From a virus: a DNA stretch of 64,000 bases. The stretch lies in the IMG/VR virus record IMGVR_UViG_3300045988_104133, positions 22,871 to 86,870 of that record. One strand, given 5' to 3'. Made by a program: the position numbers and the translations under genes. Below, piece by piece: positions 37,671 through 57,643 of the stretch. Below the pieces are notes generated by a model that saw only the letters and a list, made by a program, of their open reading frames with translations, had not been told where the DNA came from and searched no databases. Position 1 is the first letter of the stretch; each line of letters begins with the position of its first letter.

Positions 37671-38219
37671 ATGATTGAAGAAACAAAAGGATACACGTTA
37701 TCCGTCGATACATACAAGAAAGCGAAGGCTCTCAAGATGAAAGACCCTCGCTATTACATCTACGCCAGTCTCCGTGGTTCAGGTATGTCTGTTCGTGACA
37801 GCTGGGCCATCGCATTCCAAGGAGAAGGAATAGGTGTGTGGGAGAAATCATTCCTCGAAAACGAGATGAACAAGCTAGAAGCCCAAGAGTCCGTCCAGAA
37901 GAGAATAGCAGAGGTTCAGGGCAAGAAAACGAAGAACGAGAACGCCGATGAACTCACCCAGGAGGAACTTATTAAGGCTACCTCGAAGGAAGAGATTCTG
38001 AGAAACCTCGTTATCGCTCAGCGCAAGCAGAAGTTTGGCTCTCCAGAGTGGCAAAAGACAACTGCCATGATAGCCGACTACTCTAAGATTAAGCAGGACG
38101 AAATTGATACAGAAAATAATGTGGTCCACTACTACATTCCTCTATCAATGCCTCGATGCTGCGAGGACTGCATTATCTTCAAAAATGGCCAGGCGACCTT
38201 TCAAAAGAAGAAGAAATAG
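37671..38219 (+). CDS. Hypothetical protein, possibly terminase small subunit
   Basis: Track ORF 37455..38219 trimmed to MIEETKGY just after the MuF stop. SKEEILRNLVIAQRK...IADYSKIKQD resembles small-terminase C-termini, but only weakly. Confidence 0.55.
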   Translation: MIEETKGYTLSVDTYKKAKALKMKDPRYYIYASLRGSGMSVRDSWAIAFQGEGIGVWEKSFLENEMNKLEAQESVQKRIAEVQGKKTKNENADELTQEELIKATSKEEILRNLVIAQRKQKFGSPEWQKTTAMIADYSKIKQDEIDTENNVVHYYIPLSMPRCCEDCIIFKNGQATFQKKKK

Positions 38220-38271
38220 TTAAATTCGTGTTAAAGTAACTTTGTTTTACTAGAATTTCAGCAAAACCAAG

Positions 38272-38279
38272 TACCTTTG
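38272..38279 (+). promoter_or_regulatory. -7 box TACCTTTG with upstream TTTG (38241)
   Basis: Exact TAnnTTTG match in the gap between convergent operons. Confidence 0.5.
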
Positions 38280-38285
38280 CAAACA

Positions 38286-38381
38286 ATTAATGTTCACAGA
38301 TTCTTTCTGCTGAGCATAATTCAAATTATTTTGGTTAACTAAGAGGGGCAGTGTCTTCACAGATGCTGCCCCTCGCTTTTT
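38286..38381 (+). ncRNA. Candidate ~95-nt sRNA carrying an anti-leader sequence
   Basis: Promoter box upstream and an intrinsic terminator at the 3' end. Only a 7-codon ORF. 38315..38338 is the exact reverse complement of a TTAACCAA-N8-GAATTATG leader. Confidence 0.4.
38343..38381 (+). terminator. Intrinsic terminator
   Basis: GAGGGGCAG/CTGCCCCTC stem followed by GCTTTTT. Confidence 0.7.
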
Positions 38382-38419
38382 AAAACAAATATATAAGTAG
38401 AAGAAAACTTTGAAGTCAA

Positions 38420-38608
38420 TTAAGGATACTTCTCTCCGGTAACCAACTCAAGTATACCCTTAAGCCTATCATTAAGAAGGTCGTCGTTGAATACTGGAAG
38501 AATACCGTATGGAGGAAGTTTCTTCGTCTCTGCGGCCTCCAAAATAAACTGGAGCGCCTGTACCAGGGAAGTATGGTCTTGAACGACCTCAAGCAACTTA
38601 TCGCTCAT
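38420..38608 (-). CDS. Hypothetical protein (62 aa)
   Basis: Track ORF 38420..38785 trimmed to MSDKLLEVV. The longer version overlaps the better upstream ORF out of frame. Confidence 0.45.
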   Translation of the reverse strand: MSDKLLEVVQDHTSLVQALQFILEAAETKKLPPYGILPVFNDDLLNDRLKGILELVTGEKYP

Positions 38609-39152
38609 CCTTGCCTCCTTTCTTCTTAATCTGCTCTGCCATTTCAAGAATAGTCTCGGCGTGCTTATCTCGGTCGATGACCTCCTGAACTGCCTCATCG
38701 CTTTCTTTGCGAAGCTGCTCTTCAGTCTTACCCTCGTCGGCAGCAGCGTTTCTTCTTGCAGCCTCACGAGCAAGGTATTCGTCACGAAGCTTCAACTTAC
38801 CTGCCGTGTATTCTGCATCGCCAGGCAACGATGTATCAGCATACATAAGCTGGGCAAATGCCTCGATGATGTTTCCATTATCCTTGGAGAACTCATAATG
38901 GTCTCCTACAGCCACAGGAACACATTCATCGAGCGCAGCGTACATTGATGTACCGATAGAGTATTCAATACCCCATGTACCGGCAATGTCAGCAATCTTG
39001 ATGAAAGGCAGAGAGCCTCTCTGTAAATGCTTCTTGATATCAGCAGGAATATCCTCTCTGAGTGAAGCAACTTCTTTCTTAGACAAGCTCTTGCTGAACT
39101 TCAGCACGGTGAAGTGTCTTGTCTTAATAGTCTTTCCAAATGGTAATGCCAT
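38598..39152 (-). CDS. Hypothetical protein (184 aa)
   Basis: Track ORF with protein-like composition. Confidence 0.65.
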   Translation of the reverse strand: MALPFGKTIKTRHFTVLKFSKSLSKKEVASLREDIPADIKKHLQRGSLPFIKIADIAGTWGIEYSIGTSMYAALDECVPVAVGDHYEFSKDNGNIIEAFAQLMYADTSLPGDAEYTAGKLKLRDEYLAREAARRNAAADEGKTEEQLRKESDEAVQEVIDRDKHAETILEMAEQIKKKGGKDER

Positions 39153-39164
39153 GATAACAATATT

Positions 39165-39308
39165 TTAGAGTTCAACTTTTATTTCCTTATACTCGAAATC
39201 TGCGCAAGATGGATTCTCCTCAGAAGTAAACCTAATCTCATTAGGGTGGTTACAAGCTCCATTCTTGAAGAAGAAGCAATCCTTGCAAGTGTAATCAGTC
39301 TGTTCCAT
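39165..39308 (-). CDS. Cys-rich mini-protein (47 aa)
   Basis: Hand translation MEQTDYTCKDCFFFKNGACNHPNEIRFTSEENPSCADFEYKEIKVEL. Fills the gap between flanking genes. Confidence 0.4.
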   Translation of the reverse strand: MEQTDYTCKDCFFFKNGACNHPNEIRFTSEENPSCADFEYKEIKVEL

Positions 39309-39921
39309 GTTCCTTACGTTTTTGATATTCCATCAATGTCAAGATACAATAGTTAGCGCAGTCAAGAAGAGCATCTTCCAATGGTTCATTAGCAACTTGC
39401 GCCTCATTGTCCTTCAGCGTCTTGATGCGATTTACCTTCTCTCGTATCTTTCCGTAGCCGTAGTTGATACCAAGCTCATCATACATTTCGGAAAAAGCAT
39501 TCCCATAATCGTGATTCTTGCGCTTGTAGGTATCGCTCATCTTGTCGGTGATATCCTTGAAGCGGTCAGCATCGGTTCTTTCGTTTTGTTTCCCCTTAAG
39601 CGGCAACTTGCTCCAATCAAGATTATCGCCGATGATACAATCCTTCCATTCATCCATCAGCTTTTCTGCATATTCGGGATATAAACCATTCTTCTGCAAA
39701 ATATCTAAATCTACGCGTACATTAGTAATGTCGCGAACGCCACAATAAACACAGTCATTTTTAACAGACTTTACACAAAAAACATCTGTAGGTTCAATCA
39801 GTGACATGCAGCATCCTTTCCTTGTATTGACATAATAGAAAAATCCTCCTCTGGTGCGTTCTATACTCTCGCACGGAAGTAAAAACTCCAGCCCTACCTT
39901 AATATCTTCTTTCTTAATCAT
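39295..39921 (-). CDS. DUF1599-like domain protein (208 aa)
   Basis: C-terminal KRKNHDYGNAF...GKIREKVNRIKTL...EDALLDCANYCIL resembles DUF1599 (recalled). Confidence 0.6.
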   Translation of the reverse strand: MIKKEDIKVGLEFLLPCESIERTRGGFFYYVNTRKGCCMSLIEPTDVFCVKSVKNDCVYCGVRDITNVRVDLDILQKNGLYPEYAEKLMDEWKDCIIGDNLDWSKLPLKGKQNERTDADRFKDITDKMSDTYKRKNHDYGNAFSEMYDELGINYGYGKIREKVNRIKTLKDNEAQVANEPLEDALLDCANYCILTLMEYQKRKEHGTD

Positions 39922-39941
39922 AAGCTATTCCTCCTTATCTT

Positions 39942-40319
39942 TTAGTTCAACGAAATCACCAATGCCCAAACGAGCATTGTTGATGCAAGACGCAATCCAA
40001 CCCCCATCAGGTAGGCAGAAGGCTCGCCGCCGTGTTCCAAGTCAGTATATTCCTCGATGGCATCGCAGACGTGAGAAGCTTCATGGCAGCAATAGTTCAT
40101 CGACATAACCTTCCGACACGGAAACGATACAAGAACGCCGCGCCTTCTGTCGCTCTTTCTGACAGCATCGGAATACGTAACGCCGCCGTAATCAATATCG
40201 GGAGCCTTACATTTGTCAAAGCAGGAATCTATCAGCTCTTTCAGGTCTTTACCGATGTGTACCCAAAGTTTCAAAGGGTAGATTCCGTTTCCATATTCGT
40301 AATATCCTTTCTTCTTCAT
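39942..40319 (-). CDS. Putative zinc metallopeptidase-like protein (HExxH)
   Basis: HEASH motif inside CCHEASHVCD. Confidence 0.5.
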   Translation of the reverse strand: MKKKGYYEYGNGIYPLKLWVHIGKDLKELIDSCFDKCKAPDIDYGGVTYSDAVRKSDRRRGVLVSFPCRKVMSMNYCCHEASHVCDAIEEYTDLEHGGEPSAYLMGVGLRLASTMLVWALVISLN

Positions 40320-40600
40320 ACCTCATCGTTTTTATGTTTCTCCCACCCTGCTTTTGAAAAGGCATACCAAGTATCACAAATGTCTAGAGCAAGAACGTCT
40401 CCTTGATTAATACATAAATCGCTTTTAATACCTTCAACATGAACATACATCACTGCTAAAGCATCATAAGGATTACTACGACCTTCTATAAACGGATTTT
40501 TAAAGAACTTGGTCTTGTATACACTAGTAACAATAGGCACTTGAAGAACATCTGAAATATTCTCTGTGCTAATCTCTATCGACTTCTTAAACTTCTTCAT
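40316..40600 (-). CDS. Hypothetical protein (94 aa)
   Basis: Track ORF, ATGA coupling to the downstream gene. Confidence 0.6.
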   Translation of the reverse strand: MKKFKKSIEISTENISDVLQVPIVTSVYKTKFFKNPFIEGRSNPYDALAVMYVHVEGIKSDLCINQGDVLALDICDTWYAFSKAGWEKHKNDEV

Positions 40601-40698
40601 ATTCTCAAATATTTATTTTGGATACAATCTCGATGGCAGACAATAATGTCTTCTCGCTGATACCTTTTCCACTACCAACACCATCTTTCTCTATCTTT

Positions 40699-41085: not shown

Positions 41086-41092
41086 ATCTCAA

Positions 41093-41314: not shown

Positions 41315-41316
41315 AA

Positions 41317-41715: not shown

Positions 41716-41718
41716 AAG

Positions 41719-45629: not shown

Positions 45630-45860
45630 GCGTTCAAGGTACACACTATCCACGCTGACTGAAATCGGTTGCTTGTCATCCGTGCGAGATTTATCTCCTC
45701 AGAAATAAACAAGTTGCTGGCAGAAGCATAAAATCTGTAGGGTGTGAGCCACGTAGTTAAGACAATAATGATAAAACGTGGTGCAAAGATGCACATCCTG
45801 GCTAACGGGGCGGTGAGAGATCACCGCTCTACAATTATGAACCATTTAAAAATTAGAATT

Positions 45861-46106
45861 ATGAAAGAAGTACATTACATTTGGATAGATTTTGAGAGTT
45901 CAACGGGTTCGTCTAAATCGATACTTTTACGTAACGGTTGTTTTTCTCTCGATGGTGCAAAGAAATTCATAAAATCTTTGCGCCCAAAAACTCTGTATGA
46001 GAATAGACCAACTTTCTTGAAGGACTGTGTAAAAATAACATTGACCGCACAGAACATTGTCTCGTCTAACACTCTCTACAGAAGAACCATTAATATTGTA
46101 GCCTAA
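45861..46106 (+). CDS. Small hypothetical protein (81 aa), first gene of the array
   Basis: In-frame ATG of track ORF 45744..46106, directly after the GAACCATTTAAAAATTAGAATT leader. Confidence 0.6.
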   Translation: MKEVHYIWIDFESSTGSSKSILLRNGCFSLDGAKKFIKSLRPKTLYENRPTFLKDCVKITLTAQNIVSSNTLYRRTINIVA

Positions 46107-46151
46107 AATCTCCCTACGTTTGTAGGGAACAATAACCAAAATTACAGAATT

Positions 46152-46286
46152 ATGAGTACGATGAGAATTAAATGCCTCGATATGAAAGAGGTAGAGAGTA
46201 TCATTGCAGATGCTCAGGAGATTTTAAGTCACGTAGAATTCGGGTCTTTGCAGAATGGTGTGCTTACATTATTCTGCGTGGCGTGA
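46152..46286 (+). CDS. Mini-protein (44 aa)
   Basis: Hand translation MSTMRIKCLDMKEVESIIADAQEILSHVEFGSLQNGVLTLFCVA. Module leader upstream. Confidence 0.45.
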   Translation: MSTMRIKCLDMKEVESIIADAQEILSHVEFGSLQNGVLTLFCVA

Positions 46287-46303
46287 GCCTAAAATCCGTA
46301 GCT

Positions 46304-46670
46304 AGTACGATAATTGTCGTGTGTGGCTACGGAACAATTACCAATAAAATTAGAATTATGAAAGCAAGACAGATTATTTATTCAAGTACGATAATTGTGC
46401 TTGGATTTATTCAGAGTGTTCCTGCTCTGTTGTGTTTAGCAAGTACGAATATTGCCATTATTCTGCTTGGAATATTTTGGGGAATTCTGCTTGGAATATT
46501 CTGGAGAAGTACGATAATTGGCAGATGGTTCTTCAGGGAGCTGTGGAGATCTACACTCCGCTTGGAGAATTTCATCCTGCCTGGAGTGTGAGAGATTTGG
46601 AAAGTACGATAATTGTGCTTGGAAACATTCAGCTAAATTCTGCTTGGAGAAATCCAGGCAGTACGATAAT
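46304..46670 (+). repeat. Irregular direct repeats AGTACGATAAT(TG) and (AT)TCTGCTTGGA
   Basis: AGTACGA(T/A)A copies at 46304, 46385, 46442, 46508, 46603 and 46660. GCTTGGA copies at 46399, 46464, 46489, 46560, 46617 and 46642. Confidence 0.8.
46358..46591 (+). CDS. Questionable hydrophobic ORF (77 aa) spanning a DNA repeat block
   Basis: Module leader upstream, but the peptide repeats simply mirror DNA repeats that extend beyond both ends of the ORF. Confidence 0.3.
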   Translation: MKARQIIYSSTIIVLGFIQSVPALLCLASTNIAIILLGIFWGILLGIFWRSTIIGRWFFRELWRSTLRLENFILPGV

Positions 46671-46693
46671 ATAACCAATCAAACAAGAGAATT

Positions 46694-47023
46694 ATGGATA
46701 GAATATTAAAGCAAGATTTGAGCAAGAATGAGGTTATAGACCTCTTGCGTGGAATGGACGCACAGGAAGTTGAGGGAAATTTCTCTGTACGTCGTGTCCT
46801 GATCAATACACAGGCGTGTGACGTATTCGGTGGAGAACCTGAGGACTCTTATCCTCTCATCCCCGGTACGTACATGGCATTGTATTACAATAGTATTGCC
46901 GGAGACCCGTATCCGCTCTTTGAGAGAATATGTGAAAACATAATAAATGACGAGAACAAGAGCCAGACTCTCCTGAATGGCGATGGCATTATTCTGATTT
47001 TCCTGCTCAACAAGTACGAGTAG
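46694..47023 (+). CDS. Hypothetical protein (109 aa)
   Basis: Track ORF with module leader. Confidence 0.7.
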   Translation: MDRILKQDLSKNEVIDLLRGMDAQEVEGNFSVRRVLINTQACDVFGGEPEDSYPLIPGTYMALYYNSIAGDPYPLFERICENIINDENKSQTLLNGDGIILIFLLNKYE

Positions 47024-47085
47024 CCAAAAATGTGCTCAGGCATTTTCCTGGGCATACTATGTCAAACCATTAAACAAATTGAATT

Positions 47086-47262
47086 ATGTTAGACAAGAAA
47101 TCACAGAAGAATTTTGAGCGTGCGCTTATGCATGAGATGGAGAAGATCAAGATAGCAGCGCGCCAGTGGCATAGCAACAATACTAAGGGCTACAGAGATT
47201 ATCGTAGCAAGAAAACTATCTCCAAGAGTTTCTCTGAGATTGCGGTATTGTGCATGAGCTAA
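47086..47262 (+). CDS. Small basic protein (58 aa)
   Basis: Hand translation MLDKKSQKNFERALMHEMEKIKIAARQWHSNN... Module leader upstream. Confidence 0.5.
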   Translation: MLDKKSQKNFERALMHEMEKIKIAARQWHSNNTKGYRDYRSKKTISKSFSEIAVLCMS

Positions 47263-47310
47263 ATGTGCGTGACGATTGTCACGCATACTATTCACCAATA
47301 TTTAAGAATT

Positions 47311-47601
47311 ATGATAGATGAAGAATACAAGGAGAATGTAGAGTACATACTCTCTACGATTTTGCCTAAGTTGCAGGAAATCCAAAAAAAAGTATTGAAA
47401 AATCAATCAAGACTGAGCCTTGATGTTAGCGTTAGCAATAAAAACGGCGAAGGGTATATAAGTTGTTTTGCCTGTGTCATGAATGACATGGGAGAAATAA
47501 CGGATACTTGTTTTCCACGTTTCATCTGCGTATGCAGCAAAGAGGAGATTGACGAGCGGCTTAACGAACTTAAAGAGTTCATCAAGAAGTACATAGCCTG
47601 A
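47311..47601 (+). CDS. Hypothetical protein (96 aa)
   Basis: In-frame ATG of track ORF 47263..47601 after the module leader. Confidence 0.65.
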   Translation: MIDEEYKENVEYILSTILPKLQEIQKKVLKNQSRLSLDVSVSNKNGEGYISCFACVMNDMGEITDTCFPRFICVCSKEEIDERLNELKEFIKKYIA

Positions 47602-47651
47602 AAATTGAGGGAGTTTTATCTCCCTCTCCTATAAACCAAAAATGTAGAATT

Positions 47652-47921
47652 ATGAGCAAATGGGTACAATTCTATCACAAGATTAATAAGTTTGACCTTG
47701 TGAACATGAGATTTACGGATGATTTCAGTATCGTGGAAATGGTTGGCATGGATTCTATTATGCCTATTGACGGTAGACTTAATCTGTCATCCATACGTGC
47801 TGAGATACAGAAGAAAATAGAGAACATGAAGAAAATCGAGAGTTTCGACCCTTGTGCGTTCTCCATCCTCACCGGTCCTACGATTCTGTGTGCTTCAGAA
47901 AGTCCGGTGTACAATCTCTGA
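47652..47921 (+). CDS. Hypothetical protein (89 aa)
   Basis: Track ORF with module leader. Confidence 0.7.
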   Translation: MSKWVQFYHKINKFDLVNMRFTDDFSIVEMVGMDSIMPIDGRLNLSSIRAEIQKKIENMKKIESFDPCAFSILTGPTILCASESPVYNL

Positions 47922-47979
47922 GCCAGAACTGGGCAGTACGATAATGTGCTGCCTGCTATTAACCAAAACATATAGAATT

Positions 47980-48126
47980 ATGGAAACAGTAAGAGTAACT
48001 GACAGACACGGAATAGAGCGCGCGTGGGATGTCGTAACAGATAAATGTGTAGGCTGTTGTTTCTTAGGCATACACAACGGGACGACGTACTGCTGTCCTA
48101 GCCATATCTCGTGTGACAACAAGTAG
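47980..48126 (+). CDS. Cys-rich mini-protein (48 aa)
   Basis: METVRVTDRHGIERAWDVVTDKCVGCCFLGIHNGTTYCCPSHISCDNK. In-frame ATG of track ORF 47854..48126 after the module leader. Confidence 0.5.
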   Translation: METVRVTDRHGIERAWDVVTDKCVGCCFLGIHNGTTYCCPSHISCDNK

Positions 48127-48187
48127 CCAAATCTGCGGGGCACGTCCTGTGTCCTGCTTCTATTATTAACCAATAAAATTCAGAATT

Positions 48188-48364
48188 ATGACAGACGGAG
48201 ACAGAAAGTTTCTTGCCAGGCTCGTCGCGAGTCACAAGGCAGTTATCAGCGAGGAGTGCAGACGCAAGAACCTCGACAAGAGCGAGTATTTCAGACGCGT
48301 AGCGCGTGCAGACAAGAAAGCTCAGGAGATTGAACAATCGTGCATGCGACCTCGCAAGTTCTAG
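48188..48364 (+). CDS. Small basic protein (58 aa), possible ribbon-helix-helix DNA binder
   Basis: Hand translation MTDGDRKFLARLVASHKAVISEECRRKNLDKSEYFRRVARADKK... The SEYFRRVA pattern recalls CopG/MobC-type RHH proteins. Confidence 0.5.
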   Translation: MTDGDRKFLARLVASHKAVISEECRRKNLDKSEYFRRVARADKKAQEIEQSCMRPRKF

Positions 48365-48425
48365 CCAAACATTCTGTGCAGTCTATCTGCACAGAAACCA
48401 TGTTAAACCATAAAAATGTAGAATT

Positions 48426-49319
48426 ATGAAGAAAATTGTTAATACATTTACGAAGATTTTCGTACGAGACGGAAAGCGTCACAGAATTGTCGCTGTCGCT
48501 TCTTTAGGTGATGAGTGCAGAAATAACATCTGCACTTTCTCTATTACAGGTCAGATAGATATTTTCTGTTTCGGTTCATGGCACTGCAAAACCTGCGGTT
48601 GCATTACAGACGAGATATGCAAATTCTTTCCAGAATTGAAACCATTTGTAAATCTTCACATGTGCAACTACAAGGGACAGCCATTCTATACTGTGGATAA
48701 TGGTATTTACTATGTATCCCAAAGTAAGGAGATTGCTATGCGTAATCTCAGAATTACCGAGGATGAGTACGATGCCCTGCTCCCTGCTGCCGAGCTGAAC
48801 GACAAGGACTATTTTGTCTATAAGTTATTCAAGCTTGGCATCGTTAAGAGATGGAAGTCTGAAGCTGATAAGTTTATTGAGTTTCTTCTTCGCCAAGGAG
48901 GTGAATGGGAGAATCCATACACTATCAGCGACGAAAGACCGACAATTAAGCTGACCGGAGGCATAAGAGCTCTTGTAGAATCCAGACTCAAGAAAGGATA
49001 CTACACGAAGGAAAATATTGATAAGATATTGCAGCAAAGAAGAGCTGACGAAATCAGCAAGAAACGTCAGTCTATAATTGAAGAGTACTACAAGAAGACC
49101 GAAAAAGCTCGCAATGAGCGTGACGTGATGCTTTACATTCTTGACCACGGTCTTTCTATCGGTAACGTGATTTATTACGATTACAACAACACCGTGAAGT
49201 TCAACTGGCTCGATTACAAGGAGCAGATTACGAAAGAACAGTTCGAGAATTTTATTGGGAACTTAGATCCCAGCAAGTTGCCTGAGGGTATTAAATTCTC
49301 AATCGACATCAAGAAGTAG
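48426..49319 (+). CDS. Hypothetical protein (297 aa)
   Basis: Track ORF with module leader. Confidence 0.8.
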   Translation: MKKIVNTFTKIFVRDGKRHRIVAVASLGDECRNNICTFSITGQIDIFCFGSWHCKTCGCITDEICKFFPELKPFVNLHMCNYKGQPFYTVDNGIYYVSQSKEIAMRNLRITEDEYDALLPAAELNDKDYFVYKLFKLGIVKRWKSEADKFIEFLLRQGGEWENPYTISDERPTIKLTGGIRALVESRLKKGYYTKENIDKILQQRRADEISKKRQSIIEEYYKKTEKARNERDVMLYILDHGLSIGNVIYYDYNNTVKFNWLDYKEQITKEQFENFIGNLDPSKLPEGIKFSIDIKK

Positions 49320-49323
49320 CCAA

Positions 49324-49363
49324 CCAATCCTCACTCCAACGGGTGGGGATTTCTATTAACCAA
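49324..49363 (+). repeat. 40-nt direct repeat, copy 1
   Basis: CCAATCCTCACTCCAACGGGTGGGGATTTCTATTAACCAA. Differs at one position from the copy at 49719..49758. Confidence 0.9.
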
Positions 49364-49374
49364 ATATTAGAATT

Positions 49375-49713
49375 ATGATAACGGATTACTACACAGCCGT
49401 ACACTGGCTAAAAAGTGCGTTCATCCTCTGTAACGAGATTGTAGAGAATGACGAATCAGTGATTGAAAACATCGAGTATCCAGAGATGACAGAAGAAGAA
49501 AGGAACAGAATCGAGATATTCCAGTGGTTCCTCACTAACATGAGCGAAGAGGATAAGGAATGGATGCAGAAGAATTTCCCTGATCTTATCTTCTCTTACT
49601 CAGACAAGCTTGACTTGTGGATTCTTTGCGTAGATCATTTTGGAACGATGTGGAAGGGAGTCCCAACGACTACCAACTGCGAGAATGCGGCAAAGGCTAG
49701 CCAGCTGCCGTAG
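49375..49713 (+). CDS. Hypothetical protein (112 aa), flanked by the 40-nt direct repeats
   Basis: Track ORF with module leader. Confidence 0.7.
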   Translation: MITDYYTAVHWLKSAFILCNEIVENDESVIENIEYPEMTEEERNRIEIFQWFLTNMSEEDKEWMQKNFPDLIFSYSDKLDLWILCVDHFGTMWKGVPTTTNCENAAKASQLP

Positions 49714-49718
49714 CCAAA

Positions 49719-49758
49719 CCAATCCTCACTCCCACGGGTGGGGATTTCTATTAACCAA
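49719..49758 (+). repeat. 40-nt direct repeat, copy 2
   Basis: CCAATCCTCACTCCCACGGGTGGGGATTTCTATTAACCAA. Confidence 0.9.
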
Positions 49759-49771
49759 CAATTACAGAATT

Positions 49772-50011
49772 ATGAGTGATTTAGAGAAAATCCTGAATGA
49801 CGATTTGCTGAAGTGTAAAATCGTTGAGTCTGTAGAGAATCCTGTTAGGCGTGTGGATCTCATCAAGTGGACGCACGGCAATACATACTCTATTGCAGAG
49901 GTACGCAAGGATACCGGTAAGCTAGAGGTCACAGACTTGAAAGCTGCCAGTGGTCTTGAAGCATACAAGCATTTCTTCAGAAATTATGGAGACATTGCCA
50001 TATGTGGCTAA
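49772..50011 (+). CDS. Hypothetical protein (79 aa)
   Basis: In-frame ATG of track ORF 49640..50011 after the module leader. Confidence 0.65.
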   Translation: MSDLEKILNDDLLKCKIVESVENPVRRVDLIKWTHGNTYSIAEVRKDTGKLEVTDLKAASGLEAYKHFFRNYGDIAICG

Positions 50012-50063
50012 ACCTCCCCACATCATCGTGGGGAACAATTATGAACCATTAAACAGATGAATT

Positions 50064-50603
50064 ATGGAAAATAATATTTGGGAATATGTTATGAACAGCA
50101 AGGGTGAGGTTATCGAGAAAGTAGCCGATTATATCGGTGTGGAAAGCTTCGCCAAGGTGATTGAGAATCTCTATCGCGAATGCCTGGAGGAATTCGATGA
50201 CGCGGAAGACATGAAAGAATACATTGCCGATTTATACGGAAAGAATATCCAGTCTCTTGCGTGGGAGTTTACTCTAGAGGCAAACAAGGAGATGAAGAAA
50301 TATCTCCATAAGGATTCTCAGCATATGGATGGCAATTTCGCCAATCTGTACGAGGACTACCCTAAGCACAGAACAGGTGTTTGGTGGGCATCAGACTACG
50401 ATGGCGATGATTACTACGATTTGTATCCTCAGATGGTAGCCCGACTTGATGCCGCAGAGGACAGCGAACAGGCTAACGAGGATAGAGCATATCTTGAAGA
50501 GTGGTATTTCAAAGCCTTCGGTACGTACAACATCAAGTACAATTTCGGCAATTACCTTGAAGAGGTTCACTCCATGATGGAGGAAGATTACGAGGAAGCC
50601 TAA
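50064..50603 (+). CDS. Acidic hypothetical protein (179 aa)
   Basis: Track ORF with module leader. Confidence 0.75.
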   Translation: MENNIWEYVMNSKGEVIEKVADYIGVESFAKVIENLYRECLEEFDDAEDMKEYIADLYGKNIQSLAWEFTLEANKEMKKYLHKDSQHMDGNFANLYEDYPKHRTGVWWASDYDGDDYYDLYPQMVARLDAAEDSEQANEDRAYLEEWYFKAFGTYNIKYNFGNYLEEVHSMMEEDYEEA

Positions 50604-50657
50604 CAATATCCCCTAGCATGGGGGTATTCAATGTTAAACCATTTAAATGATTAGATT

Positions 50658-51479
50658 ATGAGTTACGAATTTGCAAAGAAGGAAATCGGTGATTACAGAA
50701 TCACCATTTACCAGGATGAGGATGCTGAATCGCCTTGCTCTGCATGGGATTTGGCATGAGTTTACTTCTGGGACTATTCCGACTACGGATACAACAGAGG
50801 TCTGTCTCGTGGTTGCAGCAGCGAAGTTGACGCTAAAAATGCAGATGATGCTTTGAAAGAGCTTGTCTGCAAATATGTGTCACAAAAGAAGATCATCGAC
50901 TACATCAATAGCGAAAATGTCGATAGCTTCCGTATACGTTATGACAAGAGCGAGCACATGTGGTATCTTGAGAATCTGTACAAGGGTGAGTGGTACAACC
51001 ACGAAGAGTTCTGCCCGAGCGACCTGAAGAGATTCGACTATAGAGAGGAGCTTTGTGATATCCTCGAAGAGGACGATTTCACGTATCTTCTGCATGACTG
51101 CAAGGATATTGCATTCTACGAGTGGTCCTCTACTGGCTACAGTCAGGGAGATTATGTTAGCGGATATGCCTACTGCGACAAGAATCGCTTCTCCAAGTAT
51201 TGTGACACTAATACAAAAAACTGGAGAAAGCGAGCCTTGGACTTATTTGAGCATGAGGTTAAGTGCATAGGTCTTTGGATGTGGGGAGATGTCAAGGGAT
51301 TCGTCTTGGAGAAGAAAGTCCATTACAAGAAAGTCTTCACGGAAATAGGTCGTGAGCCGGAGGACGACTACGACTGGGAACAGATTGATTCCTGCTGGGG
51401 AGAGTACTACGAGGACTCTGACGAGCTGATTAAAGTCGCTCTCGAAGAGAATGGAATCAAACTAAAAGAAACAGCCTAA
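50658..51479 (+). pseudogene. Single 273-codon reading frame interrupted by one in-frame TGA (50757..50759); either a nonsense pseudogene or a read-through/recoded gene
   Basis: The module leader is only at 50658. The frame reads MSYEFAKKEIGDYRITIYQDEDAESPCSAWDLA-TGA-VYFWDYSDYGYNRGL... and continues into track ORF 50853..51479, which has no leader and only a TTG start. Confidence 0.6.
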
Positions 51480-51529
51480 CCAAGGGGAGCTTTCATGCTC
51501 CTCTTCTATGAACCAAATTACAGAGAATT

Positions 51530-51790
51530 ATGGGAAAGATTACAATTTCGCAGAAGGGAAGTAGAACTATCTACAGAGTGAACAGAAGAATCGTGTGCTA
51601 TCGTGACGGGCACAAGTATTGTGTGGGCAAGCCATCATCTGGCAGCACCCATATCGAGTTTGATGCCTTGTCCGAGAATATTGCACACGAGAGATGTATT
51701 GAGATTTGTGAGCGTAGAATCAATGCAGAGATGAAGTATCAGAATCCTGTCGCATACAACGCCCACAGAGTATTGAACGCATTAGCCTAA
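51530..51790 (+). CDS. Hypothetical protein (86 aa)
   Basis: Track ORF with module leader. Confidence 0.7.
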   Translation: MGKITISQKGSRTIYRVNRRIVCYRDGHKYCVGKPSSGSTHIEFDALSENIAHERCIEICERRINAEMKYQNPVAYNAHRVLNALA

Positions 51791-51839
51791 AAGATAGCCT
51801 TCGGGCTATCACTATTAACCAATTAAACAAAAGAGAATT

Positions 51840-52166
51840 ATGACAAAAGAAGCTACAAAGGTATTCGATAAGTTTTTCAAGATTCATCGTGACAACGTTG
51901 CAGGTAAGACTATCTGCTTTATCTCACGTGGAGAGTGGTCCGATCCTCAGATTGCGTACAAGGGCTATCTCCTTAACTACTGGGATGTGCTAGAGCTGGC
52001 GTGTCCTGAAGATGCGCCGGATGATTACGAACCAGACGAAACAGAATGGTATGACGCTTGTGTGGATTCTCTATTCGGCTACACAGATTGCGGCTTAAAA
52101 CCTGACAAGTTTGAGCCATCAGACGCTATGAGCGTGACAGGTATCATTAATATCAAGAAGCCTTAA
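51840..52166 (+). CDS. Hypothetical protein (108 aa)
   Basis: Track ORF with module leader. Confidence 0.7.
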   Translation: MTKEATKVFDKFFKIHRDNVAGKTICFISRGEWSDPQIAYKGYLLNYWDVLELACPEDAPDDYEPDETEWYDACVDSLFGYTDCGLKPDKFEPSDAMSVTGIINIKKP

Positions 52167-52216
52167 AAACGGAGGGAGCAATCCCTCTGACATTATTAAC
52201 CAAATTATTAAAGATT

Positions 52217-52447
52217 ATGAAGAGATATTACGTATCAGTCACAGAGACTTTAAACAAGATTGTCAGCGTCGATGCCAAGAGTGAGAAAGATGCGCTTGAA
52301 CAAGTACAAACAGCCTACAATGATTCTGTCATCGTTCTCGATTCCAGCAATTTTGTAAACGAAGAAATAGAGCTTGATTCTAATCAGGAGTTATATGCTG
52401 ACAACGAAAAAGAGCAGGGAGGAGATGTTTATCAGCACATCGACTAG
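52217..52447 (+). CDS. Hypothetical acidic protein (76 aa)
   Basis: Track ORF with module leader. Confidence 0.65.
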   Translation: MKRYYVSVTETLNKIVSVDAKSEKDALEQVQTAYNDSVIVLDSSNFVNEEIELDSNQELYADNEKEQGGDVYQHID

Positions 52448-52495
52448 CCAAACGGGGAGAGCAATCTCCCTACCAATAACCAAAACACAAGAATT

Positions 52496-52864
52496 ATGAA
52501 TGAAGACAGAATCCTAGAGATGTTCTTCGAAAAAGCCAGATGGCAGTATGCTATCGAGAAAGGCTTATTCAAGGACATGAACAAAGCAGTAATGTATCAG
52601 CTTACAACGCCGGAGGCTCGTCTGGCTATGTATCAGAGGATCAAGAGCGGCAATTACAAGATAATGCCGCCACACACAGCGAAGATTCCGAAAGACAACG
52701 GAGATTTCCGTACGGTCTACGTGAATGAAGCTGTAGACAGAATCCTCCTGAGCATCGCCAACGACCTCTTGTTTGAGCTGATGCCAGAGATGGTGCATCC
52801 ACGCTGTCAAGGAAGACAAGGATGGAAAAAAGAAGAAGACATACAAGCATACCTGCAAGGGTAA
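52496..52864 (+). CDS. Reverse-transcriptase-like N-terminal fragment (fingers motifs only, 122 aa)
   Basis: SGNYKIMPPHTAKIPKDNGDFRTVYVNEAVDRILLSIANDLL matches the RT motif 1-2 pattern (G.Y.P...IPK..G..R.....DR..Q). No YxDD region follows. Confidence 0.55.
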   Translation: MNEDRILEMFFEKARWQYAIEKGLFKDMNKAVMYQLTTPEARLAMYQRIKSGNYKIMPPHTAKIPKDNGDFRTVYVNEAVDRILLSIANDLLFELMPEMVHPRCQGRQGWKKEEDIQAYLQG

Positions 52865-52907
52865 TCCTTATATCCGTCTTCAAAACGAAAACATCTTCGT
52901 CGCTGAC

Positions 52908-53309
52908 TTGGAGAGAAAGGTATACAATCCTCTCCGTGACCTTGCCAACAAGATGAGTGCTGTAGAAACCTACAAGGAACTCTACGATGCCGTTCGCAAG
53001 TTCAACAAGAACCGCAAGCATCTCGCATGGGACACCAAGCAGGCAGATGCATTCATTCATGCTTACAAGGGTTCTGGTTCCTACTACACGATGAGAAACC
53101 TCATCATGTTCCATGGAGCAAGATTCATGAAGAACGGACGAAAGATGTCAGAGGCCAATTCTCTGAAAGAGCTTGACTCTAAAGCCAAGCTCTACGATGA
53201 AGAGGGTTGGAAGATGCTCGGTGTACTCAAGCAGCTTATCAAGGACAATAATATCAGCGTCCAGGGCAAGATTCTTGAATGGAAGAAAGCCAAGAGCGAG
53301 AATAAGTAA
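52908..53309 (+). CDS. Hypothetical protein in the frame overlapping the RT-like fragment (133 aa from TTG)
   Basis: This frame is open from 52782 and overlaps the RT-like ORF by 83 nt. No module leader and no ATG before 52953. Confidence 0.45.
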   Translation: MERKVYNPLRDLANKMSAVETYKELYDAVRKFNKNRKHLAWDTKQADAFIHAYKGSGSYYTMRNLIMFHGARFMKNGRKMSEANSLKELDSKAKLYDEEGWKMLGVLKQLIKDNNISVQGKILEWKKAKSENK

Positions 53310-53340
53310 TCATCAGTAAGACGTAAGGTTCGCCGCCTAA

Positions 53341-53476
53341 AGAATGGTGGCCCGGCAGCAATTCACAAGAGCTTCTTCAACGAAGGATCTCCTCCAGTCA
53401 CTACTGGAGGTAATCCTTCGAGCTAAAGCTCTCTAGATCGAACTATTAAAGCAAGGCGCCAGCCGGGAGCCATTCT
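53341..53476 (+). ncRNA. Candidate structured RNA occupying an ORF-less cassette position
   Basis: Closing helix 53341..53356/53462..53476 (7+6 bp). Inner hairpin 53382..53419 (7+8 bp, loop CACT). G+C-rich, followed by a complete junction module. Confidence 0.4.
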
Positions 53477-53541
53477 AGCCCAAAAAAGTCGGTTACTGAT
53501 TCGGTAACCGATTCAAAGTCTAACCAATAAAATTAAGAATT

Positions 53542-53937
53542 ATGAAGGAAATTAATGTAGACACAAGAGAGTATATTAAGGCTCTTATTGACGGGAAGAA
53601 TGTCGTCGAGGAATCACTTCTAGACGCCATCTTTGACGATTCGCAATATCTCACCAATAAGTTTTTTTCATTGGGATTTGTCGGAGGCGCACCTACAATG
53701 ATAGAGTATCACGGAAACTACCTATCTATCAGGAAGCTTCGATCGTGGATTACATCAGAGTGGGGTAGAGAGATTGTCAAACGACTGACTGGCGAATCAA
53801 AAAATAATATATACTATTTCGAGACGAAGCAGTATCTCGACGAACGCCAGGCTGAGCCTTTAATCTATACATTCTTTCTGAGCACAGATTACCTTACTGT
53901 AAGATTTCACTACAATGTAAAAGTAGATGAAGATTAG
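53542..53937 (+). CDS. Hypothetical protein (131 aa)
   Basis: Track ORF with module leader. Confidence 0.7.
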   Translation: MKEINVDTREYIKALIDGKNVVEESLLDAIFDDSQYLTNKFFSLGFVGGAPTMIEYHGNYLSIRKLRSWITSEWGREIVKRLTGESKNNIYYFETKQYLDERQAEPLIYTFFLSTDYLTVRFHYNVKVDED

Positions 53938-53977
53938 CCAAACATGTCAGTCGTTAGCAGCGGCTGACTACTCATAT

Positions 53978-54004
53978 CATAACTAAATTTTGTTTAAATG
54001 GTTC
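53978..54004 (+). other. Inverted (anti-leader) copy of the junction-module leader
   Basis: The reverse complement reads GAACCATTTAAACAAAATTTAGTTATG, followed by a 2-codon ORF. Confidence 0.6.
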
Positions 54005-54007
54005 AAG

Positions 54008-54037
54008 CCGGTCTGTCGTGAGACACGCCGGTTTTTT
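54008..54037 (+). terminator. Intrinsic terminator inside the early array
   Basis: CCGGTCTGTC/GACACGCCGG stem followed by TTTTTT. Confidence 0.7.
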
Positions 54038-54071
54038 GTTCCCCAAGTTTAACCAATTTTAAATTAGAATT

Positions 54072-54776
54072 ATGAGTAGAAATTACTGGACATTAGGTAA
54101 GGAAGGAATGAAGACTCGTTTGTCAAAGGCACAGGCAGCTTACGAGAACGCATTAGAGAACGTCAGCGACTTGCATGTCAAGATCAGCGATGGCAACACA
54201 AAATTGGGAGCTATCCCATCCGTGTCGCTCATTCCGGTCATGGATTGCGGTAACTGTTCAATCTGCTCCAAGAGCTGCTACGACCTGCGCAATGACATGA
54301 TTTACAAGGAGGTCATCAAGACGAGAGCTATCAATTCTGCAATCTACCATGAGGATCCCGAGCGATACTTCAAGGAAATTGATGGGTATCTCGACTACCG
54401 ATTCCCTCGTGCATTCCGATTCCACATCGGTGGTGACATCCAGGATAAATGGTATCTTGACAAGATGTGCGAGATTGCCCGCAAGCATAAGGATACCAAG
54501 TTCCTGGCGTTCACCAAGATGTTCGATGTGTGTAACGAGTATCTCGATGAGGGCAACGTCATTCCAGAGAACATGCACATCTTATTCAGCGGATGGCTTG
54601 GTCTCAAGATGGATAACCGCCACGGATTTCCGGAGGCGCATCCTATCTTCGAGAGCGGTACATCAGCACCGGAAGGGACACGTCTGTGTACCGGAAACTG
54701 CACAGAGTGTCTGAAGGAAGACAGACTATGCTGGTCTATCGGGAAAGGTCAGGCGGTAGGATTCCTTGCACACTAG
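54072..54776 (+). CDS. Cys-cluster protein (234 aa), possibly GP88-like
   Basis: GNTKLGAIPSVSLIPVMDCGNCSICSKSCYD resembles the phage GP88 family as I recall it. Confidence 0.7.
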   Translation: MSRNYWTLGKEGMKTRLSKAQAAYENALENVSDLHVKISDGNTKLGAIPSVSLIPVMDCGNCSICSKSCYDLRNDMIYKEVIKTRAINSAIYHEDPERYFKEIDGYLDYRFPRAFRFHIGGDIQDKWYLDKMCEIARKHKDTKFLAFTKMFDVCNEYLDEGNVIPENMHILFSGWLGLKMDNRHGFPEAHPIFESGTSAPEGTRLCTGNCTECLKEDRLCWSIGKGQAVGFLAH

Positions 54777-54830
54777 CCAAAAGCCCTCTTCGGAGGGTAC
54801 AATGTTTAACCAATTAAAATTTTGTGAATT

Positions 54831-55265
54831 ATGGCAACAGCAAGAAGAGGTACAAGAATGCTCAAAGCTTCTGACATTATGAAAAGAAAGGGAATTGTCC
54901 AGAAACAGATGGACATGGACAAGTTCAACGAGGTTGTAGAGAATTTCTTTATGACCCATGAGCCTAAGGAAACGATTCTCCTAACTCCGAAGAGATTCAT
55001 CGAGATGGATAACCCGCCAGAGGGAGACTTCATTGACTATCTCGATGTCAGCGTTTGGGAGAAGAAGAGTGAGGACCCGGACGACCCGTTCGACTTCATA
55101 GACTATCAGTTCATGAAGAAGAACGGTATGCTCCGTCCTATCCTTATGGTGAACGAGCCTTTCATCGGCAATGCTGCCGGGTGGCTGAGAGATTTTTGTG
55201 GATTCACTGTGAAGAGCAGAACACGAAAGAAGAAGAAGGAATACATCGTGTCTCTGCCGGTGTAA
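54831..55265 (+). CDS. Hypothetical protein (144 aa)
   Basis: Track ORF with module leader. Confidence 0.7.
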   Translation: MATARRGTRMLKASDIMKRKGIVQKQMDMDKFNEVVENFFMTHEPKETILLTPKRFIEMDNPPEGDFIDYLDVSVWEKKSEDPDDPFDFIDYQFMKKNGMLRPILMVNEPFIGNAAGWLRDFCGFTVKSRTRKKKKEYIVSLPV

Positions 55266-55329
55266 AGCCGAACAAGGCGTGGAACAATCCGTTTCACGCT
55301 CCTAGTATTAACCAATTAAAATTAAAGAT

Positions 55330-55902
55330 ATGAATGATTTTTTGAAATTAGCAGAGAATTTAGGATGGAGTTATAATGTTGACGATACACCTAACGAAAG
55401 AGGTGAGGTTTGCGTCGAGTTAGAGAAGTATTCCCCACAAGACCAAGATTTCATCGCCACAATTTGGTTCGAGAATGGCAATAAGTCTGATTTCATGGAT
55501 AAGTTGTATCAATATTATAGCGACTTCGATCCTGACGAGGAAGCCAGTAAATGGATTGGCGAGGATGGACATGGTGCTAACGGCGCGCCATACAAATTAT
55601 CGGATATTTTGCAAGATATGGAGGATTGCAAGGATATGCTACTAGATTTATGGCACGAGTATTTTTACGATGAGTACCCAGAAAATCGTCCAAATGAGAC
55701 CGACGAAGGGAAGCGACTCGCAGGAGAAATCGAGGAGAAATCCGGAAAGTATTACCACTCGTGCTCTCTACAGAATTATCCGAGCGGTAAGTACGGCGTT
55801 ATCATTGATGGCTGTCAGAAGTTTCTATCGGACTGCAAGGAAGAGGCATTAGCCTATATGAAAGGCGTGCTTATGGGCCTTGATATCGAAAGAAAAGACT
55901 AA
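55330..55902 (+). CDS. Acidic hypothetical protein (190 aa)
   Basis: Track ORF with module leader. Confidence 0.75.
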   Translation: MNDFLKLAENLGWSYNVDDTPNERGEVCVELEKYSPQDQDFIATIWFENGNKSDFMDKLYQYYSDFDPDEEASKWIGEDGHGANGAPYKLSDILQDMEDCKDMLLDLWHEYFYDEYPENRPNETDEGKRLAGEIEEKSGKYYHSCSLQNYPSGKYGVIIDGCQKFLSDCKEEALAYMKGVLMGLDIERKD

Positions 55903-55958
55903 GCCAAACAAGCCTGCCGGGAACGGTGGGCATCAAGTTAAACCAAAATATTAAGATT

Positions 55959-56477
55959 ATGAAGAGAAAAGTATTGAAAGACAAGATTGATGAGTTGCGT
56001 TCAACAGCAAAGATGGAACTTGCATGCACCATCCGTGAGATAATGAGAGAGCACAATGTGAGCAGAAAGGTGTTCGATTGGCCTGTACTTGCCGGCGACA
56101 ACAGGGAGGTGAACATCGTAGAAGTAGGCGACAGCGATACAGCTATCCCTATCATTCATAGCCGATGCACTTCTGTAGGGTTTGAGTTTCCGGAAGCAAA
56201 AGCTATCGATGACGATATACCAGTTGACCTTCTTGCAGACATCGCTACTAGTCTGAACGACGAGCTGAACGGCTATATTGGTGTCTATGCTGCAAAGTAT
56301 AAGATTGCCTACAATGATGGAATTTTCATTTCTAAGGAGAATCCTTACGTATTCCGAGCAAAATCATATAAAGATGCATTGGATGAGGCGGAAGACTACA
56401 TGCGTGTGTGGAATGACCATAATGGTTCTACCCTAAGACTCGTATCAGTCGAGAAGCAGACTGCTTCGGAAGGTTAA
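55959..56477 (+). CDS. Hypothetical protein (172 aa)
   Basis: In-frame ATG of track ORF 55926..56477 after the module leader. Confidence 0.7.
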   Translation: MKRKVLKDKIDELRSTAKMELACTIREIMREHNVSRKVFDWPVLAGDNREVNIVEVGDSDTAIPIIHSRCTSVGFEFPEAKAIDDDIPVDLLADIATSLNDELNGYIGVYAAKYKIAYNDGIFISKENPYVFRAKSYKDALDEAEDYMRVWNDHNGSTLRLVSVEKQTASEG

Positions 56478-56560
56478 ATTAGCGTTAAAAACGGCAAAGA
56501 CGATGGTTTATATTATAAACTTTTCGTATCTTTGCCACTAGTAACCAAAATATTAGAATT

Positions 56561-57580
56561 ATGACAGAAGAAATAAGAATCAAGACAAGAGATTGGGAGA
56601 GACTTCTGAGCTACACTCAGCAGCAGAAGTACAAGACTGCCATCAAGCAGGGTTGGTTCGCCAATTATCACAGCAACGCCTGGAGGCATGACACGTTCTA
56701 TGGCGCATACATCTGGAAATACCCGAAGCTTATTAAGGTTGTAAGGATGTTCGAAGAGATGCTTGGACATAAGCCATTATGGGAAGACATCACCGACGAC
56801 AATCTGCGCGACCTCTTCGAGAAGATCCAGGAGAACTACGCTCCTAACTCGGCAAGAACCGTATGTGCAACCATCAAGGCTGTGATACGTGAGAATGATG
56901 CTACCAGGGAAATTCCTAGTCCTACGTTCGGCAGAATACTTAGAGCGAAGGCTGTACCGGTCCAGTCTGTATATCTCTCTGATGAGGAGATAAACAGAAT
57001 CATAAAGTACAACCCTCACGGGAAAACAAAAAGATATGTTCAGAGAATGTTTATCATGGAATGTCTCTGTGGCGCACGTTACAGCGACTGCCAGAGAATG
57101 ACGGAAGAGAACATAGATGATACCGGACACTTCCTCGTCTATGTTACTCAGAAAACAAAGACCGAGGTAAGGGTTCCACTTCACAAGAAGCTCCGTAAGT
57201 TCCTCGTATGCGGTACTGGTGACGAGCCTCTTCCGGGTGAGATAGGTGAAAGGACGTTCAATAGAGCACTCCGCGAAATCTGTCGTGACTGCGGAATAGA
57301 TACGAATACAAAAGTGTTCAAAGCTGGAAAGGAAGAGACTGGAAAGAAGTATCGGTTCGTCTCATCCCATACCGGCAGACGCTCGTTCGCAACGAATCTC
57401 TCAAAGAAGGGAGTGCCTCTTGAGCAGATTGCCGTCATGATGGGACATACCAGTAACGGTATGCCTAATATACAGATGACACAGCGCTACATTGTCGGTA
57501 AGACCGAGATTGACAGCAATACACTGAGATTGTTCGGCGTCTATGAAGAAGACCTCGATAACGGTCTAGATGAGGATTAA
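56561..57580 (+). CDS. Tyrosine recombinase embedded in the early array (339 aa)
   Basis: Catalytic pattern GARYSD ... HTGRRSFAT ... MMGHT ... TQRYI. Module leader upstream. Confidence 0.85.
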   Translation: MTEEIRIKTRDWERLLSYTQQQKYKTAIKQGWFANYHSNAWRHDTFYGAYIWKYPKLIKVVRMFEEMLGHKPLWEDITDDNLRDLFEKIQENYAPNSARTVCATIKAVIRENDATREIPSPTFGRILRAKAVPVQSVYLSDEEINRIIKYNPHGKTKRYVQRMFIMECLCGARYSDCQRMTEENIDDTGHFLVYVTQKTKTEVRVPLHKKLRKFLVCGTGDEPLPGEIGERTFNRALREICRDCGIDTNTKVFKAGKEETGKKYRFVSSHTGRRSFATNLSKKGVPLEQIAVMMGHTSNGMPNIQMTQRYIVGKTEIDSNTLRLFGVYEEDLDNGLDED

Positions 57581-57643
57581 GCTAAAACTGGAGGTGGTTA
57601 GCTGCCATCTCCTGCCATTGTTTAACCAATTAAAATAATGAAT

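Follow-up and report, generated by a model that had tools for sequence, protein, structure and literature searches.

In the window analysed here, a 64,000-nt stretch of IMG/VR virus record IMGVR_UViG_3300045988_104133 (positions 22,871 to 86,870), the gap between two convergent operons holds a short unit made up of a promoter-like box, the reverse complement of a leader found before many genes several kilobases away, and a GC hairpin followed by a T run. The unit raises the question of whether it is a stand-alone gene for a small RNA (sRNA) that reads those leaders, as the initial annotation proposed, part of the 3' end of the neighbouring operon, or what is left of a gene start on the opposite strand.

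The phage and its genomic context

Along the window lie genes for TerL (33552), the portal (35177), a head-morphogenesis protein (36890) and two giant tail proteins, a minus-strand primase-like gene, and then a plus-strand gene array. Since a gene flanking the unit is 98% identical in the complete Segatella copri HDD04 chromosome, and a genome scan found further copies in S. copri and Prevotella metagenome-assembled genomes (MAGs), the virus is, judging from its sequence, a temperate phage or prophage of S. copri. The flanking 184-aa gene belongs to a protein cluster with thousands of member sequences. Two related contigs, L093 and L094, are binned in MAGs labelled Mogibacterium and Bacilli, which is probably mis-binning of a Segatella phage.

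TerL has 547 aa in the window, 764 aa in relatives L085 and L087, and 914-915 aa with a LAGLIDADG_3 domain in L083 (14940-17684) and L175 (13922-16669); the larger forms suggest intein or homing-endonuclease insertions. In the AT-rich divergent gap between the primase operon and the array, several 22-30-nt inverted repeats of the type TGTAACTA...AATCAAT...TAGTTACA (44045-44513) are candidates for operators or a replication origin. Four GCTACCTTTGCAC-like copies lie on the minus strand at 44667-45061, near the start of or inside the plus-strand open reading frame (ORF) 44622-45143; all four have the form of a minus-strand -7 box, TAnnTTTG(C/T)A, and might serve as stacked antisense promoters or be repeats of an operator-like kind.

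An inverted array module in the gap between two operons

Re-reading the sequence from 37900 to 38800, together with a terminator scan, placed the -7 box, the 24-mer and the hairpin with its T-run exactly where the initial annotation had put them (Table 1). The hairpin reads GAGGGGCAGTGTCT-TCAC-AGATGCTGCCCCTC and forms 14 pairs over 38343-38374, with GCTTTTT continuing to 38381, i.e., a GC-rich stem-loop with a U-run on the transcribed strand, as expected of an intrinsic terminator. The same hairpin also closes the TerL-portal operon, and no other terminator was found between the stop of the last plus-strand gene (38219) and the hairpin. A 9-nt direct repeat, TTCACAGAT, occurs on the plus strand both in the 5' stem-loop SL1 (38293-38301) and at the top of the terminator (38356-38364).

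Table 1. Coordinates of the unit, of the leader array and of the integrase in the window.
Feature	Position	Strand	Basis or content
-7 box TACCTTTG	38272-38279; extended TACCTTTGCA to 38281	+	Bacteroidota-type promoter element
Conserved block 5' of the promoter	38220..38271	+	Stretch between the last plus-strand stop codon and the -7 box
Predicted sRNA, ~97 nt	38285..38381	+	Transcription start site (TSS) by homology; 3' end set at the terminator T-run
SL1, 5' stem-loop	38290..38317	+	Fold prediction; AUG (38290-92) paired with anti-start CAU (38315-17)
Anti-leader 24-mer CATAATTCAAATTATTTTGGTTAA, candidate seed	38315..38338	+	CAUAAUUC (38315-22), variable spacer, UUGGUUAA (38331-38)
SL2, intrinsic terminator	38343..38381	+	Terminator scan; 14-bp stem, UCAC loop, GCUUUUU tail
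Array of ~22-24 mostly small genes	45840..57640	+	Leader search; predicted targets
Tyrosine integrase, gene 56561-57580	56527..57580	+	Pfam Phage_integrase 3.2e-15; PHROG integrase 6.5e-30

The leader to which the 24-mer corresponds, AACCA[AT]-N-(G)A(A/T)TATG with a variable spacer, stands at 22-24 plus-strand gene starts between 45840 and 57638. Its core is AACCAA-N(3-12)-GAATTATG, of which the 24-mer is the reverse complement. The original estimate of about 25 genes lying 7-19 kb away was thus roughly right; both blocks are matched exactly with an N8 spacer in only two leaders (47959 and 49751), the spacer ranging from about 3 to 12 nt. The strict pattern TTAACCAA-N8-GAATTATG, with at most three mismatches, occurs seven times (1.0 expected; seven reached in 0 of 100 shuffles), six times on the plus strand at 46.3-52.2 kb and, as its sole minus-strand match, in the unit at 38.3 kb.

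Each leader is part of a larger intergenic module consisting of a stop codon, usually within TAGCC(A/T)AA, a GC hairpin, (T)ATTAACCA(A/T), an A/T-rich spacer of 3-12 nt and GAATTATG. Hairpins of -10.7 to -17.5 kcal/mol precede every array leader except that of the integrase, differ in sequence from unit to unit and have no clear U-run; they are candidates for an attenuator, an RNA-stability element, a processing site or a recombination linker. The unit at 38.3 kb reproduces this module in full and inverted, hairpin and leader together, and not the leader alone. Read on the minus strand, it runs through the hairpin, TTAG, TTAACCAA, AATAATTT and GAATTATG into an ORF of seven codons (MLSRKNL*, ATG at 38317-38315), which, as first described, heads no gene. 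An ATG at 38290 opens a second 7-codon ORF, MFTDSFC, on the plus strand. Both peptides were rejected as products, their start codons not being conserved in relatives. The array itself ends with the integrase, and the other array proteins that were scanned had no recognisable function except one GP88-domain protein; to call these genes early, as the initial annotation did, is an assumption.

A host-type promoter with a start site mapped in a lysogen

The -7 box has the form TAnnTTTG, and among 34 distinct sequences from close relatives only its two nn positions vary (TACC, TACT, TATC, TAAC). Distant lineages carry TAACTTTGCA, TATCTTTGCA or TACCTTTGCA, and the six fixed positions are kept in all lineages. 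Within the window TAnnTTTGCA is enriched (14 occurrences versus 3.3 expected). A canonical -33 TTTG, 19-21 nt upstream of the -7 box, is absent, the nearest TTTG lying 27 nt upstream (38241-44). Because the differential RNA-seq (dRNA-seq) study of El Mouali et al. reports a -7 box at >70% of S. copri primary TSSs and a -33 box at only 15% (bioRxiv 10.1101/2024.04.05.588293), the missing -33 element does not disqualify the promoter. Another TAnnTTTG, TAACTTTG, is found on the plus strand 35 nt upstream of the sRNA box (38237-38244); it is conserved in close relatives, and the TSS table of the HDD04 dRNA-seq data reports no start for it.

El Mouali et al. mapped TSSs in S. copri HDD04, and their Table S1 lists a plus-strand start, TSS:907834_f, which was called in libraries E and S (early-exponential and stationary) and classed by the authors as 'antisense' to P4D_00799 (bioRxiv 10.1101/2024.04.05.588293). 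In the HDD04 chromosome the homologous TACCTTTG occupies 907820-907827 on the plus strand, placing this start 6-7 nt downstream of the box; the distance is given as a range because the coordinates of the paper seem shifted by 1 nt relative to RefSeq (P4D_00800 at 908139-908693, versus 908141-908692 for our own match). The HDD04 prophage is near-identical to the window, and the start is mapped in that prophage, not in the window itself. The mapped integrase TSS lies at an equal distance from its own box. In the 33 kb before this start, between 874759 and 907834, the table calls no TSS, as expected for silent late genes.

It counts against the unit that TSS 907834 was called in only two of the four conditions listed, and the transcript is missing from the 26 sRNAs of Table S2A, a list whose scope is intergenic sRNAs (bioRxiv 10.1101/2024.04.05.588293). 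Since the start was called in the lysogen HDD04, the RNA is expressed in the lysogenic state, as immunity antisense RNAs are, and activity of the promoter in the lysogen is well supported. With its own promoter, TSS and terminator and without a conserved ORF, the unit has the makeup of an independent transcription unit for a trans-acting sRNA.

Conservation across related phages

The close relatives comprise 81 sequences (80 from IMG/VR and one GenBank fragment), and all 81 carry the unit, in 34 distinct versions. It is also present at six distant loci, where the flanking 184-aa protein is 50-63% identical and synteny is kept in all six; there the order is again TAnnTTTGCA, a stem-loop, (C/A)(A/G)UAAUUC, a short spacer, UUGGUU and a terminator, and the arrays of these six loci have an unchanged leader consensus. 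Covariance model R1, built from the close relatives, finds one match per genome, always at the syntenic site on the plus strand (E 1e-8 to 1e-29), and a DNA pattern combining seed and loop matches at least 118 IMG/VR contigs, once each. Conservation in related phages, proposed at the outset as a check, thus holds throughout the relatives examined, including those in which the flanking protein is only about 50% identical.

Conservation is unevenly distributed within the unit. TAATTC and TTGGTT are kept in all lineages (L085 reads TAATTT and ATGGTT), and the spacer between them varies in length and sequence. The lower terminator stem changes by compensation, e.g., GGGGCAG/CUGCCCC, GGGCGG/CCGCCC, GGGGUGG/CCACCCC and UGGGUGG/CCACCCA. 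While this lower stem covaries, the apical GUCUUCACAGAU of the terminator is invariant in most lineages, with a compensated GUCC/GGAU change in L177; this suggests a sequence-specific role for the apical loop. Upstream, the block between the stop codon of the plus-strand gene and the -7 box is near-invariant among the 81 close relatives, even where the flanking gene has been swapped for another allele. That last plus-strand gene has at least three unrelated 3' alleles in close relatives (38219-38225; L039, L033, L030), and its stop codon is the precise point at which the conserved intergenic block sets in, a sharp boundary of recombination.

An intact minus-strand gene at the site, named beforehand as the observation that would speak against an sRNA, was found in none of more than 90 related loci; in many relatives the minus-strand ATG is ACG or the ORF has two codons. 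A decayed gene start was rejected as an explanation, because a neutral relic would not keep its blocks intact over such divergence and no relative has the minus-strand gene. The closest annotated phages, LoVEphage and Bacteroides phage BI-TP1, have a TerL 59% identical to that of the window and a similar TerL/portal/primase layout; neither has an AACCAA leader array or the sRNA, the best covariance-model hit in BI-TP1 being non-significant (E = 0.15). This joint absence fits a co-occurrence of array and sRNA, as far as a single outgroup can indicate.

Predicted fold and coding strand

The plus-strand RNA from 38285 to 38381 is predicted to fold into SL1, an A/U-rich linker and the terminator (z = -6.4), and four variants from other lineages give a matching fold. 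From 38318 on, the linker is predicted to be unpaired or weakly paired. The blocks UAAUUC and UUGGUU are therefore conserved, predicted to be accessible and complementary to the start regions of the predicted targets, as would be expected of a seed; the anti-AUG triplet, sequestered in SL1, counts against this.

In the alignment of close relatives, 95.4% of cells are paired and five pairs are changed on both sides; at the base of SL1, U-A is replaced by C-G in six variants, so that AUG/CAU becomes ACG/CGU with the stem kept. In the alignment that covers all lineages, the paired cells amount to 91.1%, and both-side changes occur in 17 of 25 pairs, a count biased towards the model structure to which this alignment was fitted. 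Ten of the 11 SL1 pairs are changed on both sides in the broad alignment, as are seven pairs of SL2, where 96.4% of cells are paired. For covariation, the score is 0.394, versus 0.163 +/- 0.015 for shuffles and 0.045-0.10 for slid controls.

Canonical pairs are more frequent on the plus strand than on the minus strand, both overall (91.1% versus 84.3%) and in SL2 (96.4% versus 86.9%). In most sequences the plus strand has a T-run after the stem, and no U-tract exists on the minus strand. G.U pairs of the plus strand, one of them invariant among close relatives, would be A.C mismatches on the minus strand, and the minus-strand ATG-to-ACG change destroys a start codon while the plus strand keeps a G.U pair with the AUG. 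The G.U pairs and the T-run favour the plus strand as the coding strand. Against the Rfam models, nothing in the window reached the gathering score of a family, and by this measure the RNA has no homology to a described immunity antisense RNA.

Collectively, conservation, the -7 box, stem covariation and the HDD04 TSS strongly support the proposal of a stand-alone plus-strand promoter, anti-leader and terminator giving a transcript of about 95 nt. That an sRNA gene of about 97 nt exists at this locus can be stated with high confidence.

Predicted pairing with array leaders and the integrase mRNA

The linker (38311-38342) was paired in silico with gene starts from -40 to +12. Duplexes with 21 array starts have a median energy of -14.4 kcal/mol, versus -8.8 kcal/mol for 61 other gene starts (Mann-Whitney p = 3.5e-8), a comparison that is partly circular since the finding was itself defined by the motif; with shuffled seeds the value is -7.4 +/- 0.9 kcal/mol. 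AACCA[AT] is array-specific (15 of 21 array starts, three of 61 others), whereas ATTATG and GAATTATG-like sequences are a general start context, occurring at 13 of the 61 non-array genes. Because such GAATTATG-like contexts are common outside the array, specificity would come from UUGGUU only, which counts against the proposed targeting. At most leaders, moreover, the predicted pairing consists of two blocks of 6-8 nt with an internal loop between them, a further point against it.

The integrase is the best predicted target (-19.8 to -21.4 kcal/mol; -21.4 in the scan of all gene starts), with 21 of 23 positions paired between sRNA and leader in a manual alignment. Its gene has a host-type -7 box, TATCTTTG (56527-34), and by homology with HDD04 its TSS is inferred at 56540, so that its 21-nt 5'UTR, AGUAACCAAAAUAUUAGAAUU, is the shared leader itself. 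The HDD04 homologue P4D_00837 is listed with a TSS at 929006, a 21-nt UTR and expression in four of four conditions (bioRxiv 10.1101/2024.04.05.588293). That the leader might be a promoter for a phage polymerase was considered and rejected, since the host-type box and the mapped TSS of the integrase put the leader inside a 5'UTR.

Pairing of sRNA variants with the integrase leader is predicted at -16 to -27 kcal/mol nearly throughout, versus -5 to -9 kcal/mol for shuffles; variants from distant lineages were paired with the integrase-leader alleles of the window's own group. The exception among the 24 variant-by-allele pairings is L085 with the second leader allele (-11.9 kcal/mol). In 45 contigs that have both elements, the sRNA spacer and the integrase-leader allele show no covariation, each of the two alleles occurring with every spacer type, and the leader consensus is constant between lineages. 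Since the spacer does not covary with the leader allele, the pairing, if real, relies on the two blocks. From this complementarity we infer that the sRNA may act on the leaders.

Alternative explanations

The sRNA could be real without acting on the leaders, its anti-leader being the residue of an inverted module and its true partners being other targets, such as host mRNAs, or a protein bound through the GUCUUCACAGAU loop or the A/U-rich linker. Phage sRNAs that target host genes are known; the missing covariation between spacer and integrase leader would fit such a role, as would the apical GUCUUCACAGAU, which is more invariant than the seed and of which a part, TTCACAGAT, is repeated in SL1. 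A residue should decay, however, and the changes fall in the spacer, in SL1 and in the lower part of the terminator stem, whereas both blocks are intact at about 50% flanking identity; the strong pairing predicted with the integrase leader in nearly every variant likewise speaks for leader targets. We regard this alternative as unlikely, though it is the one that survives best.

We consider it still less probable that no independent sRNA exists and that the region is the terminator or 3'UTR of the late TerL-portal operon, with the anti-leader kept by recombination or gene conversion with the 22-24 modules and the TSS incidental. The lack of another terminator ahead of the hairpin speaks for this account, repeated modules are natural recombination substrates in a region whose flanking genes are mosaic, and the TSS was called in only two libraries. 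Yet the fixed positions of the -7 box are kept in all lineages with a TSS at the canonical distance, SL1, which lies between promoter and seed, covaries and is without an equivalent in the array modules, and an array on the plus strand could convert this site only by inverted exchange.

A function on the minus strand, whether as a decayed or mini-ORF gene start or as a 3'-end module of the minus-strand operon in which hairpin and AACCAA act as they do in the array, could draw on the unit being a complete inverted module directly downstream of the last minus-strand gene (stop 38420) and followed by a 7-codon ORF, but it is largely refuted and very improbable given the absence of a minus-strand gene from more than 90 related loci with their ACG or two-codon variants, the neighbouring minus-strand genes (38420-43514) that do not use the leader, the fewer canonical pairs and missing U-tract on that strand, and a mapped TSS on the plus strand.

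Proposed mechanism and origin

Taken as a whole, the locus is probably best explained as a temperate-phage non-coding RNA gene of about 97 nt that acts on shared leaders. It is well supported that host RNA polymerase starts 6-7 nt past the TAnnTTTGCA box, at about 38285, and that the resulting transcript comprises the 5' stem-loop and the A/U-rich linker and ends at the strong terminator. In the proposed model, the linker blocks UAAUUC and UUGGUU, as the reverse complement of the AACCAA-N-GAAUUAUG blocks of the leaders, would allow the sRNA to form a duplex with each leader that reaches the start codon, to keep ribosomes out and thereby to lower translation. The more specific claim, of a prophage sRNA that reduces translation of both the integrase and the array by pairing with their common leader, is, in our judgement, somewhat favoured over its opposite.

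In the prophage, the mRNAs chiefly affected would be that of the integrase, whose transcription is constitutive, and any array transcripts arising from leaky expression or from a superinfecting phage. At the late stage of infection, the late operon would also supply the anti-leader sequence, as its 3'UTR, adding to repression. According to the HDD04 study, S. copri has no known sRNA chaperones (bioRxiv 10.1101/2024.04.05.588293), which counts against such a mechanism. The unit likely originated by inversion of one array intergenic module, its hairpin becoming the terminator and its leader the seed. In its widest form the model is tentative, and we hold it to be possible but somewhat short of probable: a single prophage sRNA would be the RNA counterpart of a global translational repressor, keeping the array silent in the lysogen and possibly acting against superinfecting relatives, would have arisen by module inversion, and would be the first such circuit in a Bacteroidota phage.

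Relation to known systems

The closest known functional analogues are the c4 antisense RNA of P1/P7 and, for the logic of one factor acting on many start sites, RegA of T4. c4 (immI) is a small RNA made in the lysogen that pairs in trans at a ribosome-binding region and blocks translation of an mRNA for lytic functions. The RNA described here resembles c4 in being a small phage RNA that is expressed in a lysogen and has two separated short blocks of complementarity, its effect being predicted. It differs in that c4 is cut from a longer precursor within the operon of its target and has one target gene, the antirepressor, whereas the present sRNA is a transcription unit of its own, with promoter and terminator, 7-19 kb away from the genes it is predicted to target, and matches the leader of about 22-24 genes; the two have no kinship in sequence or in Rfam. 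T4 RegA is a protein repressor that acts at a short A/U-rich motif by the start codons of many phage mRNAs. The proposed factor would share with RegA its single-factor, many-site logic, but would be an RNA that reads the motif by base pairing.

Other phage RNAs and structures, i.e., P22 sar, lambda OOP and lambda sib retroregulation of int, limit lysis-lysogeny genes including the integrase. They are encoded opposite or adjacent to a single target, unlike the present sRNA, which is encoded elsewhere and is partly complementary to many. Among host RNAs, GibS and MasB are trans-acting sRNAs of Bacteroides thetaiotaomicron. SrcF is a trans-acting sRNA described in S. copri (bioRxiv 10.1101/2024.04.05.588293). 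With these three the unit shares a TAnnTTTG -7 box, a 5' stem-loop, a predicted unpaired seed and an intrinsic terminator, in hosts without Hfq, ProQ and CsrA; they are chromosomal and serve host metabolism, whereas the sRNA here is carried by a phage and has a seed matching a leader repeated in the phage genome. The array modules, as distinct from the sRNA, recall another known element. PeSL promoter-stem-loop cassettes of T4-type phages are repeated between small genes, can be copied or moved and carry an early promoter. Like PeSLs, the array modules are stem-loop modules repeated between many small genes in a plastic region; unlike them, they combine a hairpin with a translation leader and have no recognisable promoter.

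Our literature search returned no described Bacteroidota phage sRNA of this kind, and to our knowledge almost no work has addressed post-transcriptional regulation in phages of Bacteroidota. Within the phage antisense-RNA theme, what sets this putative trans-acting sRNA apart is a seed matching a leader that recurs throughout a gene array, together with its probable derivation from an inverted array module.

Implications

In the human gut, Segatella copri ranks among the most prevalent bacteria, and the prophage family described here is an abundant one. The lysogen HDD04 can be cultivated, has a deletion system and has been profiled by dRNA-seq, which makes the hypothesis directly testable. 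If the sRNA represses the leader, this would explain why about 22-24 unrelated small genes keep one 5' leader, and would make both the integrase and the array accessible to manipulation through one gene, and perhaps also lysogeny, excision or immunity. It would also show that a regulatory RNA can arise when its target site is copied in inverted orientation, a one-step route to such a regulator.
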